DNA of 32,000 bases. Origin: Candidatus Methanoperedens sp. (GTDB taxonomy: Archaea > Halobacteriota > Methanosarcinia > Methanosarcinales > Methanoperedenaceae). The translations under genes were made by a program, and so were the position numbers. How positions within the stretch are numbered: position 1 is the first letter of the stretch; each line of letters starts with the position of its first letter. Location: assembly GCA_027460535.1 (NCBI GenBank), contig JAPZAR010000024.1:102830-134829 (forward strand). The letters are read 5' to 3'. Positions 4,296 to 12,885 of this stretch are shown piece after piece. Under the pieces are notes generated by a model, which ran no database searches, had not been told where the DNA came from, and saw only the letters and a program-made list of their open reading frames with translations.

Positions 4296-5213
4296 TTATG
4301 CTACTACCCTTGTACCTGTTTTGCCCGCGAGAGCAGGCAGCGCCTTATCCAGGCTTGAGATAATGGCAGTCTTCCCTCCGGATCTGACGAACCAGAGCGC
4401 TGCAAGTACCTTTGGTTCCATGCTGCCTTTTCCGAAATGTCCTTCCTCAATATATTTTTCAGCCTCTGAAACAGATATTTTATCAAGGTCTATCTGATCC
4501 TCTTTTCCAAAATTCAGGGCCGCTTTCTCAACATCGGTTAGTATGAGAAGGATCTCTGCCCCAACCGCGGTCGCTATCAGGCTGCCCGTAAGATCTTTGT
4601 CAATGACCGCTTCGACGCCAGAAAGCAAATTGTTTTTTCTAATGACAGGGATCCCGCCTCCTCCTCCGGCTATAACTACGACACCTTCCTCAACCAGTTT
4701 TTTTATAATTTCTTCCTCAACTATCTGTCTGGGCAGTGGTGAAGCCACGACCCGCCTGTAACCTTTTTTATCCTTTATCATTTTCATGCCTTTCTCCATC
4801 ATCTTCCTTGCTCTGAATTCGGGATAATAAAGGCCGATCGGCTTGGTGGGAACCGAGCAACATGACTCATCCACAATCACCTGCGTGAGGATCGTCACGA
4901 CCTTTTTCTCTATTCCCTCCTCTTTCAGCCGGTTATCAAGGGATTGCTGAAGCAAATATCCAAGCATCCCCTGCGTCTGGGCCCCGCAAAGATCAAGGGG
5001 TTGCGGATGAACAAGACCGCACTCTTCCTGCATCGCAAGGATATTCCCTATCTGAGGGCCATTGCCATGGGTCACAACCACATCAAAATCATTTTGGATG
5101 ATCTGCGCGATCTCCCTGCAGGCTTCATCGATCATTCGCTGCTGCTCAACCGGACTTCCCTTTTCGGGATTCAATATCGCGTTACCACCAATTGCAATCA
5201 CTATTCTGGTCAT
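4296..5213 (-). CDS. arcC: carbamate kinase
   Basis: MTRIVIAIGGNAIL...VVTHGNGPQIGNIL...IAGGGGGIPV are carbamate kinase signatures. I chose the start at M14 of the track ORF (ATG 5213, preceded by GGGGAAA). Confidence 0.85.
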   Translation of the reverse strand: MTRIVIAIGGNAILNPEKGSPVEQQRMIDEACREIAQIIQNDFDVVVTHGNGPQIGNILAMQEECGLVHPQPLDLCGAQTQGMLGYLLQQSLDNRLKEEGIEKKVVTILTQVIVDESCCSVPTKPIGLYYPEFRARKMMEKGMKMIKDKKGYRRVVASPLPRQIVEEEIIKKLVEEGVVVIAGGGGGIPVIRKNNLLSGVEAVIDKDLTGSLIATAVGAEILLILTDVEKAALNFGKEDQIDLDKISVSEAEKYIEEGHFGKGSMEPKVLAALWFVRSGGKTAIISSLDKALPALAGKTGTRVVA

Positions 5214-5246
5214 TTTCCCCTGAATGTTCAATGACTTACATGGCTT

Positions 5247-5264
5247 TAACATATTATAATTTCG
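5247..5264. repeat. left copy of the 18-bp perfect direct repeat TAACATATTATAATTTCG
   Basis: An identical 18-mer occurs at 7722-7739. The two copies sit at the two edges of the AT-rich two-gene segment. The repeat contains a TATA-like core (ATATTATAAT). Confidence 0.85.
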
Positions 5265-5329
5265 GGTACTGTTAAGTTAATGAGTATGTAAAATACTATC
5301 TAAAGTTCTCAAAAATATAAAAATTTTTT

Positions 5330-6445
5330 TTAATTTACTTCAAAACCAAAATCACCTAATTCTCTATCTTTTTGCCTCTCTGTTTTATACTTTGATTGAA
5401 TTTCTTCAATAGCAGTCTCCTTCATACCATCAAGTTCTTCTTCCAATTGATTTTTTATCCATTTTTCTTCAAATATCTGTGCCAGTTTATCTGCTCTATA
5501 GCTTTTAGCTTTTATGCGATATTGATTGGGTTCTATAGTTGTTTTTTCTAAGAAATCAATTCTTAAACCCAAACTTAAAATTGATTTTGCTTCATTTTTT
5601 ATCACTCCATCATCCAGATAGAAAAGCTCTTTTGATAAATTTTCTATCAATTCATCTTCGCTCACAGTGAGTCCGGTTTCCTCAATTCTTGCAGCGAATA
5701 TAAGAGAATCAAGTTTAGAAACTGGATGACTTTGTGGGAAAAAATTAAACATCTTTCTATTTGATAAAACACGATTCTTCATTCTTTTATTGAGTTCATG
5801 GTCTCGGTGTATCATACTATTTTTTATAGTGGGTGGAATTATTTTTGGTGGGAAGGCTATAGAAATACCTTCTAATCCTGTAATAGGAGCATGCCAAACA
5901 ACAATTCCGCCACCTTTATCAATTGTTTTTCTTAAAATGTTTGGCGCATCTATAGAAGGTACTGCGATTACATATTCGAAATATACCATTTCATTTATAG
6001 GTATCTTGAGATATTTGGTTTTTATGTAATCCGTGTATTGAGTTATTGTAATAATTCTATCCTTATACTCATTTATTATCTTATCAGGATTTTTTGAAAT
6101 ACTTCCTTTTGCTTCTCCGAAAATTGCAATTCTTACTCTTTCTGTCGATTTATAAAGAAGAAAATCTACGTTTGGAATACTAAGTTCAGCCAAAGGGCTG
6201 GCTCGAATAAACCGATAATCAATACTTCTTAATGTTCCCTTCTCAGTAAACGGAGCAACACAAACATTTATCATCACTCTATGTTTTCGGTCAATTTCTA
6301 TGGCATTTTTTTTAGCTTTCTCGAGAAAATCTCTTTTAGAGTTGAAATTTTGTTCCACTTGGTATAATAGGTGTTTCTTTTCTTCTCTATATGCTTCTAT
6401 TAGACTTGGAGAGTGTAGGAACTTGATAAATTCCTCGTCGTCCAA
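5330..6445 (-). CDS. hypothetical protein with a PD-(D/E)xK-like nuclease motif and a possible C-terminal wHTH
   Basis: 371-aa ORF with a TTG start preceded by AGGAGAG. The segment AELSIPNVDFLLYKSTERVRIAIFGEAKGS fits E...D-x(n)-ExK of restriction-endonuclease-fold nucleases. The C-terminal half (SEDELIENLSKELFYLDDG...YRIKAK) is helix-rich. I recognised no family. Confidence 0.45.
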   Translation of the reverse strand: MDDEEFIKFLHSPSLIEAYREEKKHLLYQVEQNFNSKRDFLEKAKKNAIEIDRKHRVMINVCVAPFTEKGTLRSIDYRFIRASPLAELSIPNVDFLLYKSTERVRIAIFGEAKGSISKNPDKIINEYKDRIITITQYTDYIKTKYLKIPINEMVYFEYVIAVPSIDAPNILRKTIDKGGGIVVWHAPITGLEGISIAFPPKIIPPTIKNSMIHRDHELNKRMKNRVLSNRKMFNFFPQSHPVSKLDSLIFAARIEETGLTVSEDELIENLSKELFYLDDGVIKNEAKSILSLGLRIDFLEKTTIEPNQYRIKAKSYRADKLAQIFEEKWIKNQLEEELDGMKETAIEEIQSKYKTERQKDRELGDFGFEVN

Positions 6446-6457
6446 AAATTATCTCTC

Positions 6458-7531
6458 CTATTGTCTTTCATCGATTGTAGAGAGTTCTGCTTGTTCATCA
6501 ATAGATTCTGCTATTCCTCGATAGAAACCCAAAAGTGACTCAAAAGTCATTCGATATTTAGGTACAATAAGGATTTCAGACTCGCTTGCGCTAATATCAA
6601 ACACTGAACCTTTAATTTCATCAATTACTGTGGAAGTAAAACTCAATGACCCGATTTCAATATTTTTATCAATAAATGAAAAATCTTTAAGCTCCTTTGC
6701 TAAACTCTCTACAGTATAAGCGTCAATTTCTCGTTTATGGAGTTTAATTACTCCGACATCGACTGATGCAGATTTTAGATTTGATTCTCCAGAAGCGATG
6801 TTAAAGTTCAACGATTTAGAGATGTTTCTCATTTTTAAAATTGGGTCTTTTATTTCATCTAAGTAATTGAAGAATAATGAAAGCGCGGGGGATGATGGTT
6901 CTTGTGCTGAGAATAGACCCTCATTTGTAAGATGAAGTTTCAAATTTTCATTCACTTGGATATAAATGGAAGTGGGTAAAACCCCATATAATTCTTCAAT
7001 TTCCAACATTGTTTGCGTACCGTCATCACCTGTATAGTTGAATCGTCTTTCATAATTAGGCCTAATTCTGCTTGGTGTATCATCCAATAACTTTCTCTTA
7101 CTAGTGAATCTATACACAAAACTTCCATTATTCTGTTCAATTGTTTCTTTCCAAAAACGTCTAAAAAAGTCTGGTTTTATCCACATAGGAGTGGTGCCTC
7201 TTGACTTTTTTATTTTATTTTCTACAGATTTTTTATATCTCTCGTTATTTGCTGTTGTGAATAATAATAATAAACCCGGACTATATTCCAAAGCATAGTA
7301 TATTTCTTCAATTTCATCAGAAGATTCTACCTCTGGTGTAACTTTAAAAATTGCGCCTAATTGCGTAATCTCATCTATTTTAAACAAGGTGGTTTGCCAT
7401 GAATTATCCGAAACAAGAATGCAATAAATTTTAAGCCAATTCTTTCTTTCCTCTTCAAATATTTCATCGGAGTGTTCCATGAGATAATCTAAAAACTCAC
7501 CCACTGAATATTCTTTTTCAGGAATTTTCAT
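6458..7531 (-). CDS. hypothetical protein, first gene of the inserted operon
   Basis: 357-aa uninterrupted ORF in AT-rich DNA, which makes a chance ORF unlikely. It lies 12 nt upstream of the 371-aa gene. I could find no recognisable motif. Confidence 0.55.
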   Translation of the reverse strand: MKIPEKEYSVGEFLDYLMEHSDEIFEEERKNWLKIYCILVSDNSWQTTLFKIDEITQLGAIFKVTPEVESSDEIEEIYYALEYSPGLLLLFTTANNERYKKSVENKIKKSRGTTPMWIKPDFFRRFWKETIEQNNGSFVYRFTSKRKLLDDTPSRIRPNYERRFNYTGDDGTQTMLEIEELYGVLPTSIYIQVNENLKLHLTNEGLFSAQEPSSPALSLFFNYLDEIKDPILKMRNISKSLNFNIASGESNLKSASVDVGVIKLHKREIDAYTVESLAKELKDFSFIDKNIEIGSLSFTSTVIDEIKGSVFDISASESEILIVPKYRMTFESLLGFYRGIAESIDEQAELSTIDERQ

Positions 7532-7721
7532 TTTATTATCATTACTTCTTTTTTGTATATATAATATACTGCATAAACTTTATTTAACTCAGTGTTGGTT
7601 TTTAATGTTTTGTTCATCTTTGGGGTATACCAAATTGAGGAAGCCAAATACCTAACAAAATTAGATGGTTTGGAGGTTTAATGTTTTAAATCCGAGGTTA
7701 TTTTACCCCTACTCCTTAATC

Positions 7722-7739
7722 TAACATATTATAATTTCG
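7722..7739. repeat. right copy of the 18-bp perfect direct repeat TAACATATTATAATTTCG
   Basis: Identical to 5247-5264. It lies 45 bp upstream of the ATG at 7784. Confidence 0.85.
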
Positions 7740-7783
7740 TTACCTCTATATACTGTGAGATTAATTTCAACTGGGTACCTGAA

Positions 7784-8959
7784 ATGAAGACATGCATAAT
7801 GTGCGGCGGCGAGGGAACAAGACTTCGGCCTCTTACTTTTGACAGACCAAAACCAATGATCCCGCTTTTGAACAAGCCATCGGTCGTGCATCTGGTGGAA
7901 CACCTTGCCAAGGAAGGTTTCAACGACATTGTGCTCACCCTGGGTTATCTCGGCGGGGAAATAGAAAATGCGCTGGGCGACGGGAGTATGTACGGTGTTC
8001 ATATCGAATATGTACATGAAATAGAAAAACTGGGAACCGCAGGCGGTGTAAAGAATGCAGAGGAACTCTTCGAGGGCGAGCCTTTCATGGTGGTCGGGGG
8101 AGACCATGTCATGAACCTTGGATTGCGGGAGTTCGTGCGCTTCCATGAGGAGAACGATGCCATCGTGACGATCGGTTTAATCCCCATAGACGACCCGCGC
8201 GAATACGGCATCGCGGATATGGATGTCAATAACAGGATCAACCGGTTCTTTGAAAAACCCGGGCCAGGTGAAATTTTCAGCAACCTTGCAAGCACAGGCA
8301 TATACGTCTGCGATCCCGAGATCCTTGATCTGATACCCGGGAAGAAATACGATTTTGCAAAAGACCTTTTCCCTGATATCATGAAAAAAGGCGAGATAAT
8401 CAACGGTTTCCTTGTGCATGGGAGGTGGACTGATATCGGGAACCCGCAGGCTTACAGGGAAGCATGCAGGTGGATGCTTGAGCAGATGCCCGGGACAAAG
8501 ATATCCGGGCGATTTAATATCAAGGACGCAAAAGTGACTGGGCCGATAGACATCGCCCATGATGTTTCGCTGGGCTCGAATTCCTCCATTGTCGGGCCGA
8601 TAGTGATAGGAGAGAACACCTCCATAGGGGATAATGTATTGATAGGCCCTTATACGTCCATCGGGTCAAACTGTAAAATCGGCAATAACTCAAGGATACT
8701 TTCATCGTATATCTATGATAATGTGGAAATCGGCGAAAACACAGCTGTTTCCAGTGCGACCATCGATAATGCCACCAAGATAAAGGATTCCTGTATACTT
8801 GAAACCGGTACTGTCATCGGTCCGCGGGTAATAATCGGGAATGATGTCACGGTTAACTCGCAGGTGAGGATATGGCCGGAAGTAAGAGTAAAGAATGGAA
8901 CCAGGGTCACGGAGAACCTTGGAAATGAGGACTTCGGGAACGAGATAAAAGGCTCCTAA
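7784..8959 (+). CDS. NDP-sugar pyrophosphorylase (sugar-1-phosphate nucleotidyltransferase) with a C-terminal left-handed beta-helix
   Basis: CGGEGTRLRPLTFDRPKPMIPL is the GxGTRLxPLT nucleotidyltransferase motif. The C-terminal third has hexapeptide repeats (IGENTSIGDNVLIGPYTSIGSNCKIGNNS). Confidence 0.8.
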   Translation: MKTCIMCGGEGTRLRPLTFDRPKPMIPLLNKPSVVHLVEHLAKEGFNDIVLTLGYLGGEIENALGDGSMYGVHIEYVHEIEKLGTAGGVKNAEELFEGEPFMVVGGDHVMNLGLREFVRFHEENDAIVTIGLIPIDDPREYGIADMDVNNRINRFFEKPGPGEIFSNLASTGIYVCDPEILDLIPGKKYDFAKDLFPDIMKKGEIINGFLVHGRWTDIGNPQAYREACRWMLEQMPGTKISGRFNIKDAKVTGPIDIAHDVSLGSNSSIVGPIVIGENTSIGDNVLIGPYTSIGSNCKIGNNSRILSSYIYDNVEIGENTAVSSATIDNATKIKDSCILETGTVIGPRVIIGNDVTVNSQVRIWPEVRVKNGTRVTENLGNEDFGNEIKGS

Positions 8960-9639: not shown

Positions 9640-9821
9640 CAGACCATTCTTTGCCTTTTAATTTATAAATTTTTAAAACTTAGCTTTATTTATGTTTGGA
9701 TTTCCGTAGTGAGAATCCTTTAGACATAGCATAATTGATTGGTTTATTTTTATCTTTAGTTGTAAGCGTCTCTATATAATGGCTTTTGATGGCTTAAAGT
9801 TTAAAAAAGGATAGATTTTCA

Positions 9822-10100
9822 TTACTTCATTGAAAGATGAATAGACGAGGAAATTTCGAATATACTTTCCCTTGCAAAATGAATTATTAATGCTGCTTCA
9901 GAGATGTATAGTAAAATTTTAACTGTAAAGGGCAAATTCGGAAACAATAGCTCAGTAAATTTAATCGTAAACCAAATGATTAAAATTGTTAGAAAAAAGA
10001 GGAAGGTATGCTTAACTAAATTAATTGTATAAGGATATGTTTTAACCCAAATATCATGGTGAATAGATGGTACTTCAGGTTTTTTTATTTTATTAGCCAT
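9822..10100 (-). CDS. small membrane protein with two predicted TM helices
   Basis: 92-aa ORF with hydrophobic stretches HTFLFFLTILIIWFTIKF and FTVKILLYISEAALIIHF. It lies 24 nt downstream of the RHH-fusion gene, in AT-rich DNA. Confidence 0.45.
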   Translation of the reverse strand: MANKIKKPEVPSIHHDIWVKTYPYTINLVKHTFLFFLTILIIWFTIKFTELLFPNLPFTVKILLYISEAALIIHFARESIFEISSSIHLSMK

Positions 10101-10124
10101 TAATTCACCATTAATTTATTAAGA

Positions 10125-10637
10125 TTATTTTGATAATCCAGATAATTCTAAAATATTTTTTAAAATCTGTAATTTATCAAGAACTTCTTTATTTTTATTA
10201 GCCGTTTCGTACAATTCATTTATTAGATTAGTTATTATTTTATCAGGCTCATCAAAAATATGAATTGGTAGATTTTTATCATTAAGATGCCAAGTTTGTT
10301 CTGGGGATTCATCAGATTCACTAGACCACATACGAACCTCATCTTGATACAGAATATATGTATAATTAACACCGTTAAATGGATTGGAAGATGAGCCTAT
10401 TTGCAAAGACGTTTCCCATTTTTTTAGAATTTCTGATATTTTTTTAAGTACATCAGTATAAACGTCTCGTAATTTATCAGAAGTCACAATTTTATCATTA
10501 TCATGACCAAGCGAATATAATTTTAATGAGTTCTCAGTCACTTCAGAAAGATTAAGACCTAACTTTTTCGCTTTTTCAATTACTTCTGAATTAATTGAAA
10601 GTGTTAATTTCTTTTTTTCGGATTCCATACGTATCAT
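10125..10637 (-). CDS. ribbon-helix-helix (CopG/VapB-like) N-terminal domain fused to an unknown C-terminal domain
   Basis: 170-aa ORF. KKKLTLSINSEVIEKAKKLGLNLSEVTENSLK matches the archaeal RHH antitoxin/regulator pattern. The remaining ~120 aa are unrecognised. Confidence 0.5.
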   Translation of the reverse strand: MIRMESEKKKLTLSINSEVIEKAKKLGLNLSEVTENSLKLYSLGHDNDKIVTSDKLRDVYTDVLKKISEILKKWETSLQIGSSSNPFNGVNYTYILYQDEVRMWSSESDESPEQTWHLNDKNLPIHIFDEPDKIITNLINELYETANKNKEVLDKLQILKNILELSGLSK

Positions 10638-10710
10638 TATTTCATTATTTGCACGTATGTTTAAATAGTTTTCTGTACATACGTATGTTTTTATTATTAT
10701 TAGTACGTAT
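10627..10710. promoter_or_regulatory. four spaced copies of a palindromic ATACGTAT-type motif around a TATA-like box (candidate operator array)
   Basis: The ACGTAT core occurs at 10629-10634, 10653-10658, 10681-10686 and 10705-10710, with spacings of 24, 28 and 24 bp. The copy at 10678-10687 is a perfect 10-bp palindrome, CATACGTATG. A TATTTAAA element (minus sense, plus-strand 10661-10668) lies between two copies, about 25-30 bp upstream of the ATG. Confidence 0.5.
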
Positions 10711-10994
10711 AAATTAATATTTCAGAAATGGCTAAAATGCATAAGTTTGTTTGAAACCGAAAATATAATATCAACTTCAGTATATTGTTATCCTAAATAA
10801 CTACCAACAAGAATAGAAACGGTCAAAACAAACGTCCATTTGTTTGTACTTTTTTCTTTAAAGGGACAGAAACAAGCTTTTTGATATACCCCTTTTTATC
10901 GCTGAAAATTTCTTATTTCTCTTTTTTTCTTTAATTTAAGATAATTGACCGTTGATATCGGGAGATTGCTTTTTATGAGAATATTAATCATGTA

Positions 10995-11465
10995 TTAATA
11001 TCCGTATTCATGCGAACGAGAGATAAAATTATCCCACTCTTTTCTCTTCGGAAAATTTGAATTCAAAGGAGGAAGTTCGCCATGAGTTTTAAAATATTTC
11101 ACAATAGCTTCTCCCTCAAATTGTTCTATTTCTTTTGTTTTATAATATGAATATTCCAAGTCCTTTGATTCAATTTTTATATTCACTTTTCTTAACAGAT
11201 AAATCATATTACTCGCGGGGTGACCACCCATGTTTTTTAAAGCCCCTCCGGCTTCGAACCCCTTTAGAAACCTTTTACGTCCTTTTTCCATATCGCCATT
11301 TTTACCAATATAAAGTACACCTTCCGAATCTTCCTTTAACCATCGAGGTATTACGACTGGTTTTTTATCTTTAAGAAGTCTTATTCTATATACTGCTGGA
11401 TTCGATTCCGCGGAATCTTCAATGTTTCTCCATTCTGTCCAATAAAGAATAGGGGTAATATCCAT
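10995..11465 (-). CDS. GIY-YIG-like nuclease-domain protein (tentative)
   Basis: 156-aa ORF. PAVYRIRLL...GVLYIGKNGDMEKGRKRF, then FEGEAIVKYF...LPPLNSNF, resemble the GIY...YIG...R...E...N motifs. The GIY-YIG spacing is about 25 aa, longer than canonical. Confidence 0.4.
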   Translation of the reverse strand: MDITPILYWTEWRNIEDSAESNPAVYRIRLLKDKKPVVIPRWLKEDSEGVLYIGKNGDMEKGRKRFLKGFEAGGALKNMGGHPASNMIYLLRKVNIKIESKDLEYSYYKTKEIEQFEGEAIVKYFKTHGELPPLNSNFPKRKEWDNFISRSHEYGY

Positions 11466-11633
11466 ATTATCACTCAGCTTTCATTACAAAATTAAACATG
11501 ATAAAATTATCGAAATTATCCCCCGACTTTTGACATGTCATTCTATCCCCGAAGACTCGACGGAACCTCTCAGTAGAAACATATATATATATTAAATTTC
11601 AGAATCATGTGTTAATAGATAGAAAATTTAAAT

Positions 11634-11676
11634 AAATTGGGTGGTATATTAAGAATGAAATTGGGTGGTATATTAA
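11634..11676 (+). repeat. 19-bp tandem direct repeat AAATTGGGTGGTATATTAA (2 copies, 24-bp period)
   Basis: The copies at 11634-11652 and 11658-11676 are identical and straddle the ATG at 11655. Confidence 0.85.
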
Positions 11677-12317
11677 AAATAGTTCCTGAAGATGATAGAA
11701 ATTTCACTCAAATCGATAATCTTGCTACGTTGAAACAAAAAGTCAAAGAAAGTAAAAGAAATATCATAATAATCCCTTTCGCTTCCGTAATTATTCTTAT
11801 TGTAACAGCAATAGTAATAGCGAAATTCTTTTCGGCACCCGTTCCCCCTCCACCTAGTTTAACAGGGATAACCATATTTGCGGTAATCTACTTTATCGCA
11901 CAGTTATCCGAAAGAGTCACCGAACTATTCAGCGACGTTTCAGTAAAGGGAAGTTCTCCAAGATTAGGTGAATACACGAGACATATAAGTTACATTGATA
12001 TGGTTATTAAAAATACCATTGATAAAAACACGAGAACTCTATTAGAGTTAGACCATCCGTCAATACATGATATGAGACAACTTATTTACTATAATGAGTT
12101 ACAAAGTTACTATGACAAGAGAAATAGGGAGATTATACTTTGGGCTGTCCCCTCATTATTCGCAGTTATATTCACATCACTGACATTAGGGTTGTTTGGG
12201 ATTATTGGAATAACTTACATACCACACGTATGGGATTCGTTATTCAGCGGGATGATCATTGGAGGCGGAACAAAGCCATTACACGATTTAATATCTTACA
12301 TACAAAGTAAACCATAA
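11655..12317 (+). CDS. hypothetical integral membrane protein
   Basis: The ORF has hydrophobic segments IIIIPFASVIILIVTAIVIAKFF, ITIFAVIYFIAQL and ILWAVPSLFAVIFTSLTLGLFGIIGITYI. I preferred the ATG at 11655 over the TTG at 11637 used by the track. Confidence 0.5.
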   Translation: MKLGGILKIVPEDDRNFTQIDNLATLKQKVKESKRNIIIIPFASVIILIVTAIVIAKFFSAPVPPPPSLTGITIFAVIYFIAQLSERVTELFSDVSVKGSSPRLGEYTRHISYIDMVIKNTIDKNTRTLLELDHPSIHDMRQLIYYNELQSYYDKRNREIILWAVPSLFAVIFTSLTLGLFGIIGITYIPHVWDSLFSGMIIGGGTKPLHDLISYIQSKP

Positions 12318-12450
12318 AACCACATTCAGTGGCAACTGGCAATATTTATAGTCGCAGATAATCTACATTAATGAGGTCGTAAGCTCTCTTTTTTTTTGCG
12401 GATGAAAAAAACGATAAAAAAAGAGAACCTGGTTTACCACACCAAGTCGA

Positions 12451-12520
12451 ATAAGAAAGAGTGATTGCTCACTCTCTCTCTTCCAAGAACCGTACTTGCG
12501 ACTTTCACCGCATACGGCTC
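12451..12520 (-). mobile_element. group II intron 3' remnant: domain V (12487-12520) plus a domain VI-like hairpin (12451-12480)
   Basis: The minus strand reads GAGCCGTATGCGGTGAAAGTCGCAAGTACGGTTC, 34 nt. It has the AGC triad, a GAAA tetraloop and a 2-nt AA bulge, which is the textbook domain V architecture. It is followed by GAGAGAGAGTGA-GCAA-TCACTCTTTCTTAT, ending in AT. No RT ORF or 5' GUGYG is found upstream. Confidence 0.7.
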
Positions 12521-12662
12521 AAGCGTTCGATAACCCTTTAAATAGGCCAGCAGTTATTTGTCATATATATGAATCATTTGATTCATGGTCAGTTTCCCAT
12601 ACGTTAAAAAAGTCACAAGATTTATAACTGTTTCATGACATTGCATAATTGCAGGTGAAAAA

Positions 12663-12845
12663 ATGCCTTACATATATAAAGTTAAAAATATCGGAGGAAC
12701 AAAACCAGGGAAAGCGATAGAAAAAAAGTTGAATGACCTTGGAAGCGAGGATTGGGAGTTAATAGCTTTCCAATGCAATAATGATAAGACTTTAACAGGA
12801 ATATTCAAAAAGGTCAAATTGTCATCAGAGAATTCTGGCGCATAA
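12663..12845 (+). CDS. DUF4177-like small protein
   Basis: 60-aa ORF preceded by AGGTGA. YIYKVKNIGG...KLNDLGSEDWELIAF resembles the DUF4177 pattern. Confidence 0.5.
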   Translation: MPYIYKVKNIGGTKPGKAIEKKLNDLGSEDWELIAFQCNNDKTLTGIFKKVKLSSENSGA

Positions 12846-12885
12846 TAGCTATTTCATTCATAGCTACAAAGAACTTCCAGCCTTT

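Follow-up and report, generated by a model that had tools for sequence, protein, structure and literature searches.

A transposon-like cassette in an archaeal arcC promoter and its candidate two-gene DNA-targeting defence module

How did a short AT-rich segment with two genes of its own come to lie between the carbamate kinase gene arcC and a nucleotidyltransferase gene, and what might its two genes do there? We addressed this question in a stretch of 32,000 nucleotides from Candidatus Methanoperedens sp. (GenBank assembly GCA_027460535.1, contig JAPZAR010000024.1, positions 102,830 to 134,829 of the forward strand), here referred to as the window. An earlier note on this DNA, made from the letters alone, had described the segment as an insertion between two copies of an 18-bp repeat and its genes, here called A and B, as a nuclease with a partner in a possible anti-virus or selfish system. 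The reading that we favour, with a probability of roughly 0.6, is that of a transposon-borne two-gene DNA-targeting defence module, whose nuclease would be encoded by B and whose partner protein by A.

The insertion at the arcC promoter

The features that define the insertion are the following (window positions).

4296–5213, minus strand: arcC, carbamate kinase, 305 aa, the native left-flank gene (TIGR00746, E 5.6e-108).
5247–5264, minus strand: direct-repeat copy 1 on the arcC side, CGAAA-TTATAATA-TGTTA on the minus strand, read as the native transcription factor B recognition element (BRE) and TATA box of arcC, 34–51 nt upstream of the ATG at 5213; homologous to the empty site of locus L027, TAACGAAATATATCATGTAT.
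5265–7721: the mobile cassette, 2,457 bp, bounded by the copies of the 18-mer.
7722–7739, minus strand: direct-repeat copy 2 on the nucleotidyltransferase side, read as the duplicated arcC BRE/TATA, now pointing into the cassette.
7745–7753, plus strand: TATA box of the divergent nucleotidyltransferase gene, TCTATATAC, in the native flank and kept in L022, L027 and L034.
7784–8959, plus strand: sugar-phosphate nucleotidyltransferase (NTP-transferase), 391 aa, the native right-flank gene (PF00483, E 9.7e-50).

The 18-mer TAACATATTATAATTTCG is present in exactly two copies in the window, 5247–5264 and 7722–7739, even when up to three mismatches are allowed, and none of 100 shuffles contained two or more matches to it. 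These counts bear out what the earlier note had said of its uniqueness. Among the 207 fetched loci it occurs in contigs of the same strain only, always as two copies at the edges of the cassette; it is derived from a promoter, yet it is no promoter motif repeated across the genome. The base composition changes at the same boundaries as described before, with a guanine-plus-cytosine (GC) content of 31.7% in 5265–7721 against 46.6% and 49.2% in the flanks.

From its sequence, the 18-mer is the BRE/TATA promoter of arcC itself, which was duplicated when the cassette was inserted. A BRE and TATA box at 34–51 nt upstream of the ATG is the normal geometry of an archaeal promoter. This placement goes with a start of arcC at 5213 (305 aa), which homologues and TIGR00746 indicate to be the correct one and which has GGGG upstream. 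Public calls give arcC as 318 aa from an ATG within the 18-mer (window 5213–5252).

We then searched for the empty site with arcC as the query, taking one genome per species, and obtained 32 Methanoperedens-type loci. In none of the 32 was a homologue of A or B found, and the pair is no part of a syntenic core. Three of the loci (L022, L027 and L034) keep the synteny of rpiA, NTP-transferase divergent from arcC, and DUF1858, with NTP-transferase and arcC adjacent and the cassette absent.

L022: NTP-transferase identity 89%, intergenic region 287 bp.
L027: NTP-transferase identity 82%, intergenic region 94 bp.
L034: NTP-transferase identity 76%, intergenic region 56 bp.

When the cassette and one copy of the 18-mer are removed from the window, an intergenic region of 94 bp is left, which aligns from end to end with the 94 bp of L027, in the order NTP-transferase TATA CAGTATATAGA, then TAACGAAAT..., then GGGGAA-ATGACCAGAAT. 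The earlier note had predicted a restored region of about 95 bp with a single TATA-like element; the length was right, whereas the TATA elements number two, one for each of the divergent genes. The cassette is an insertion, and of this we are close to certain. Since the duplicated 18 bp are the promoter itself, arcC still has a promoter copy, and the second copy would read into the cassette.

The closest empty site, L022 4771–5057, measures 287 bp rather than 94 and contains a possible small hydrophobic open reading frame (ORF) on the opposite strand, which points to a promoter region where changes recur. A Candidatus Methanoperedens metagenome-assembled genome encodes a hypothetical protein with 100% identity to protein A, and the arrangement is identical on every contig that bears protein A or the identical NTP-transferase.

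Terminal repeats and the mobility of the cassette

Beyond the direct repeats, the cassette has terminal inverted repeats, which the earlier note had not seen and which strengthen its reading of an insertion with target duplication.

5265–5286, plus strand: intact terminal inverted repeat at the gene B downstream end, GGTACTGTTAAGTTAATGAGTA, identical at 20 of 22 positions to the L095 repeat GATACTGTTAAGTTAAGGAGTA, with 0 expected by chance.
7700–7721, minus strand: degenerate terminal inverted repeat at the gene A upstream end, GATTAAGGAGTAGGGGTAAAAT on the minus strand, with about 10 nt lost or about 6 substitutions relative to the L095 repeat.

These repeats were recognised in a second copy of the cassette, on a contig of another metagenome (L095). 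This copy has 79.7% nucleotide identity with ours over 2.2 kb and lies at an unrelated locus, flanked by other genes with a GC content of 44–46%. At its ends stands an inverted repeat of 21 bp without mismatch, AAGATACTGTTAAGTTAAGGA, which against shuffles reaches z = 12.5, and a 9-bp direct repeat, TTTCATGAA, brackets the whole. For the window itself the corresponding signal is weak (z = 2.5). At synonymous sites the two cassettes have diverged by 0.7–1.0, and the terminal repeat has nevertheless been kept at 20 of 22 positions, which argues for selection on the repeat. Both insertions (n = 2) hit AT-rich promoter DNA between divergent genes, and in both the A-then-B operon is oriented towards the downstream host gene.

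As the earlier note had stated, the cassette holds two genes only and matches no methyltransferase, integrase or transposase family; scans against Pfam, NCBIfam and PADLOC families gave no transposase, integrase or Cas1 in it. Family scans also found no recombinase domain in or beside it, and there is no tRNA in the window. Because it has inverted repeats and none of these enzymes and no tRNA, we read the cassette as a non-autonomous element, transposon-like and probably mobilised in trans by the transposase of another element.

The distribution of A and B agrees in making them passengers. Around the distant pairs L088, L090, L092, L205, L206 and L207 no flanking inverted repeat was significant (z ≤ 1.5), and the pair occurs once per replicon or contig; on these two grounds A and B appear to be cargo and not transposition machinery. 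With the cassette as blastn query, plasmids gave no match.

One locus (L204, a low-GC contig) carries at 974–1843 an IS6-family (DDE_Tnp_IS240) transposase gene 105 bp upstream of an A homologue with 77% identity. Terminal repeats like those of the cassette were looked for in L204 and not found. The start of the repeat, GGTACTGTT, presumably resembles the IS6-family/IS26-type consensus.

The predicted nuclease, its partner and their genomic company

The genes and signals inside the cassette all read from the minus strand.

5311–5323, minus strand: oligo-T tract, TTTTTATATTTTT on the transcribed strand, just past the gene B stop, as read from the sequence.
5330–6445, minus strand: gene B, 371 aa, TTG start; predicted long N-terminal helix, PD-(D/E)xK core (E87, D94, E111-A-K113), winged-helix-like domain and long C-terminal helix.
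6446–6457, minus strand: A/B intergenic gap, 12 nt, with a Shine-Dalgarno-like AGGAGAG overlapping the A stop codon.
6458–7531, minus strand: gene A, 357 aa, ATG start; repeated alpha/beta domains in the model; PF27341 (AF_0896_M), PHROG 24372.
7556–7569, minus strand: TATA-like element, TATATTATATATAC on the minus strand, about 25–38 nt upstream of the A ATG.

The TATA-like element is probably the cassette's own promoter, and similar TATATA(C)AAAAA elements stand upstream of A in L204 and L205; the oligo-T tract is probably an archaeal terminator. The tight operon that had been proposed, with its 12-nt gap, AGGAGAG and TTG start, was found as described, and the TTG start is also backed by homologues starting with MDDEEF or MDEEEF. 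The overlap of AGGAGAG with the stop codon of A suggests translational coupling of the two genes.

Protein B of the window has no Pfam or NCBIfam match. Its AlphaFold2 model (predicted local distance difference test score, pLDDT, 92.7; predicted template-modelling score 0.86) consists of a long helix (13–66), a core, a helix-and-hairpin region (241–311) and a final helix (318–366). In the core, strands 77–82, 95–100 and 105–112 are followed by helix 120–146, strand 155–163, helix 164–176 and strand 182–186. The second strand begins with D94 and the third ends in E111-A-K113, which is the PD-(D/E)xK arrangement. In 27 homologues of B, P84, L85, E87, N92, D94, G110, E111 and K113 are invariant, and in 39 diverse members with identities down to 17%, D94 and K113 are still invariant and E111 is conserved in at least 90%. 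The best Foldseek matches of B are PaqCI, XisH, AF2093, FokI, MspJI and Cap4, together with many winged-helix proteins, and a few members of the family have weak Pfam matches: HSDR_N_2 in 7 of 39 (best E 5.7e-4), YhcG_C in 1 of 39 and NOV_C in 1 of 39. From the model and these residues, the PD-(D/E)xK nuclease fold of B is highly probable.

The previous assignment of B to this nuclease class is upheld in that AlphaFold2 and Foldseek place such a core around FGEAKG, with motif residues invariant or nearly so. The helix-rich tail that had been noted divides in the model into a winged-helix-like domain and then one long C-terminal helix. B would thus be, with the same high probability for its fold, a PD-(D/E)xK endonuclease with a winged-helix-like domain, predicted to cleave DNA. 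An exhaustive profile search gave 313 clusters of the family at 50% identity, and the full-length members among the 150 best matches listed are all about 360 aa long, with no extra domains.

Protein A had been called a protein without recognisable motif. In fact it carries PF27341 (AF_0896_M, a domain of unknown function), which is its only public annotation, and matches PHROG 24372, whose function is unknown. Its model (pLDDT 87.1) shows three successive alpha/beta units. The Foldseek probabilities are 0.97 for RdgC, 1.0 and 0.95 for phage RdgC-like “recombination associated” proteins and 0.99 for the NRD domain of RnlA; giant-virus models of the TATA-binding protein (TBP)/TFIID and an RNase LS-like protein are also similar. 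No RNase-H/DDE, HUH or recombinase fold appeared among the Foldseek results, nor did A give a Pfam RdgC match at E ≤ 0.1 or a HEPN match. Its most conserved stretch is R157-PNY-x-RRFNYTGDDGTQT, and this arginine-rich motif is plausibly a nucleic-acid-binding surface. Profile searches of A and B against PDB sequences returned noise only.

The two genes form a conserved pair. A stands directly before B wherever this could be judged, namely in the window, L088, L090, L092, L095, L096, L205 and five haloarchaeal plasmids. In the window and the six other L loci just listed, and likewise on plasmids L206, L207 and L216, the two genes overlap slightly or are separated by no more than 15 nt. On these three plasmids B is 25–27% identical to ours and keeps PNFDFLL...IFGEAKSS. 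Both genes are under purifying selection, with ratios of nonsynonymous to synonymous substitution rates of 0.07–0.11 for A and 0.16–0.20 for B. The distribution of the pair is patchy and mostly archaeal, from Methanoperedens to haloarchaeal plasmids.

Of the haloarchaeal plasmids, two carry B in split or truncated form. At L215 9102–10217, NZ_CP084467.1 293979–294455 and CP050018.1, it is divided between two ORFs, reduced to 47% coverage, or absent beside a partial A, and these sequences point to frequent decay of the pair.

At five loci the neighbours include defence genes; the sample is small, and the result is a count of loci without statistics.

L088: MkoA-, MkoB- and DrmC-like genes (PADLOC models).
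L090: RmrA, a DrmD-like helicase and GmrSD/HEC-06 (PADLOC models).
L092: three SIR2 genes (PADLOC models).
L206 and L215: restriction endonucleases, DUF499, DUF1156 and an AAA ATPase with endonuclease (annotation).

Co-occurrence of A and B and their vicinity to defence genes, which the earlier note had asked about, are both seen. Judged by these neighbours, a defence role of the pair is somewhat favoured. The suggestion of an anti-virus or selfish system draws its strength from defence islands in other genomes and is an inference. No relatives turned up when IMG/VR was searched with the A and B profiles, nor in a phage collection, and in the literature on PF27341, AF_0896, RdgC-like defence and archaeal defence surveys we found no description of the pair.

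Weighing the readings and comparison with known systems

These results can be combined as follows. A cassette without a transposase of its own was inserted into the BRE/TATA promoter of arcC, duplicating 18 bp of the target; it carries the closely linked A-then-B operon, probably with its own promoter ahead of the genes and an oligo-T terminator behind them. B would be the endonuclease of a DNA-targeting defence module, and A, which may interact with it physically, would bind nucleic acid as its sensor or regulatory partner, perhaps as a ring or clamp in the manner of RdgC. The pair would act against viruses or plasmids and spread horizontally as transposon or plasmid cargo. Because there is no methyltransferase, self and non-self must be told apart by other means, for which infection-triggered activation, modified DNA or DNA ends could be used.

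Several observations weigh against this reading. As for mobility, the upstream terminal repeat of the window is degenerate and keeps only ...TAAGGAGTA..GTAAAAT. The target duplication measures 18 bp in the window but 9 bp in L095, a difference that is unusual for a single transposase, and the 9-mer of L095 is partly palindromic and could instead extend the inverted repeat. Neither a cognate transposase nor a further copy of the terminal repeat was present in the 1.2 Mb of fetched loci. A scan with a 17-mer of the terminal repeat gave 107 single matches in metagenomes and 7 in viral contigs, none of them paired, and the extended matches were at chance level. As for function, the structural matches of both proteins are weak: none reaches E ≤ 1e-3 against PDB, the best of B is at 4.8e-3 with a template-modelling (TM) score of about 0.2, and the TM score of A is about 0.3. 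Neither A nor B matches any of the 5,027 models of PADLOC v2.0.0 at E ≤ 1. Moreover, the cassette of the window sits between housekeeping genes and in no defence island, and the plasmid copy L216 is surrounded by metabolic genes.

Four other explanations were considered. The one that survives best, though we hold it to be unlikely, is that the pair serves a mobile element in addiction or maintenance, either in the manner of a toxin-antitoxin system or, in a recombination function, as a nuclease together with an RdgC-like modulator. The best whole-length structural matches of A, RdgC and the phage “recombination associated” proteins (probabilities 0.95–1.0), fit such a role, as do its match to the N-terminal domains of the RnlA toxin and to PHROG 24372, the presence of the pair on haloarchaeal megaplasmids and a CcdA-like gene in the neighbouring AT-rich island. 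However, proteins of 357 and 371 aa that are highly conserved are unlike typical small antitoxins, and A lacks both the Pfam RdgC match and the HEPN domain. The want of relatives in IMG/VR and the phage collection tells in the same direction, and the neighbours are mostly dedicated defence genes rather than genes of replication or partition.

Far less probable is a reading in which A and B move the cassette themselves, as a new type of autonomous transposon, with B cutting at the terminal repeats and A binding DNA or joining strands. It would account for an element that has terminal inverted repeats and target duplications, yet no recognisable transposase, integrase or Cas1; the duplication lengths of 18 and 9 bp are unlike those of a standard DDE transposase, and the pair is patchy, lies on plasmids and is found next to insertion sequences. 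TnsA of Tn7 presumably shares the layout of nuclease and winged helix. Nevertheless, TnsA is absent from the top 50 structural matches of B, and A has none of the RNase-H/DDE, HUH or recombinase folds (Foldseek). The distant pairs named above are without significant inverted repeats, and a single copy per replicon or contig gives no sign of proliferation. We know of no transposase that works with a PD-(D/E)xK nuclease only. Autonomous cut-and-paste by A and B would have to proceed without a DDE, HUH, serine, tyrosine or Cas1 enzyme, make duplications of 9–18 bp and have been domesticated or immobilised in defence islands, and in this full form we rate it a shade lower still.

Comparably improbable is site-specific integration or illegitimate recombination, with the 18-mer as an attachment (att) core or a microhomology duplication and the inverted repeats incidental. 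At 18 bp, the repeat has the typical size of an att core and would make a long target duplication for a transposition, and in the window the upstream repeat is degenerate and the inverted-repeat signal reaches only z = 2.5. But the 18-mer is the native promoter, occurs once in the empty site and is not shared with L095, where the flanking repeat differs and the terminal inverted repeats are the same, which fits target duplication beside the ends of an element. No integrase lies in or next to the cassette and no tRNA in the window, and an att site beside a tRNA or integrase is ruled out on this account. Finally, that the segment is native and was lost from the relatives, its repeat and AT-richness being coincidental, agrees with the cassette in all sampled contigs of this strain but is effectively ruled out by the empty-site alignment and next to impossible, given the perfect 18-bp repeat exactly at the composition boundary, the colinear intergenic regions of three independent relatives (L022, L027 and L034) with the length of the restored site, and the presence of the same cassette at another locus, that of L095.

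At window 9640–12885, between rpiA and an ABC-transporter ATPase gene, there is a second AT-rich island (31.4% GC). Because the two genes are only 44 bp apart in L022, this island is an insertion as well. It encodes a CcdA/ribbon-helix-helix-like protein (10125–10637, minus strand) and several ORFs without family match. At its edges we found only 8-bp matches, a chance level for flanking repeats. Within it, 12446–12522 (minus strand) matches Rfam RF00029 (62.9 bits, E 2.7e-10), the group II catalytic intron domain V/VI, and at 11634–11680, where the ORF 11637–12317 starts, two copies of a 23-nt repeat, AAATTGGGTGGTATATTAAGAAT, stand in near-perfect tandem (family D7).

Under the reading of a transposon-borne defence module, the pair is a candidate for a new archaeal defence system. 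Archaeal immunity beyond CRISPR and restriction-modification is poorly charted. Many archaeal genomes are without a detected defence system, and discovery strategies adapted to archaea are needed (2026 survey, PMC12988326). The B family is compact, with a fixed architecture and about 313 clusters; its predicted active site is clear and can be mutated, and the fold of its partner is unusual. The pair recurs beside validated defence genes, and homologues are present on plasmids of culturable haloarchaea (Halorubrum lacusprofundi and H. ezzemoulense), in which genetics is feasible. The locus is also an unusually complete record of an insertion, with empty sites, target duplication, terminal inverted repeats and a second copy elsewhere, and it presents a transposase-less cargo element that landed in a promoter without silencing the downstream gene.

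Compared with known mobile elements, the cassette is nearest to non-autonomous transposable elements with passenger genes, with which it shares terminal inverted repeats of about 22 bp, direct repeats, empty sites, different loci and the lack of a transposase; it differs in that no partner transposase was found and that its duplications of 18 and 9 bp are unequal. The likeness to IS6 lies only in the presumed resemblance of GGTACTGTT to the IS26-type repeat and in the IS240-type gene beside a relative in L204, for IS6 makes 8-bp duplications and has an IS240-type transposase inside, whereas the cassette has 18 or 9 bp and none. Unlike a Casposon or a Tn7-like element, it has two genes, neither of which matches the Cas1, PolB or TnsB/TnsC families, and unlike an integrase-mediated island or an integron cassette, it is without a tyrosine or serine recombinase domain and without a tRNA in the window.

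Protein A has RdgC as its best structural match, over about 300 columns and along with phage RdgC-like proteins, but at a TM score of only about 0.3 and with no Pfam RdgC domain. To the RnlA toxin of RNase LS it is similar in the TBP-like NRD-type domain only, and it lacks the C-terminal HEPN RNase domain. It is set apart from both by its own signature motif, RRFNYTGDDGTQT. With nucleases of the PD-(D/E)xK restriction-endonuclease fold (FokI, PaqCI, XisH and HSDR_N_2), B shares in its model the core order, the E...D...ExK residues and an added winged-helix-like, presumably DNA-binding domain. It differs from them in having no significant sequence or whole-chain structural match (best E 4.8e-3, TM about 0.2), in the nuclease's place within the N-terminal half, between two helices that are each about 50 residues long, in its constant pairing with A and in the lack of a methyltransferase partner.

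As a whole, the pair resembles the two-gene nuclease anti-phage systems of the kind collected in PADLOC and DefenseFinder. Here too a nuclease effector shares a small operon with an uncharacterised partner; the pair is patchy and borne by plasmids or transposons, and it keeps the same company of SIR2, GmrSD, Mokosh-like and restriction genes. What differs is that none of the 5,027 PADLOC v2 models matches it, that its distribution is mostly archaeal and that its defence role is proposed from its neighbours. The general kind, a nuclease with a partner in defence islands and on a mobile carrier, is familiar, whereas this pairing, the fold of the partner and the transposase-less carrier are not.

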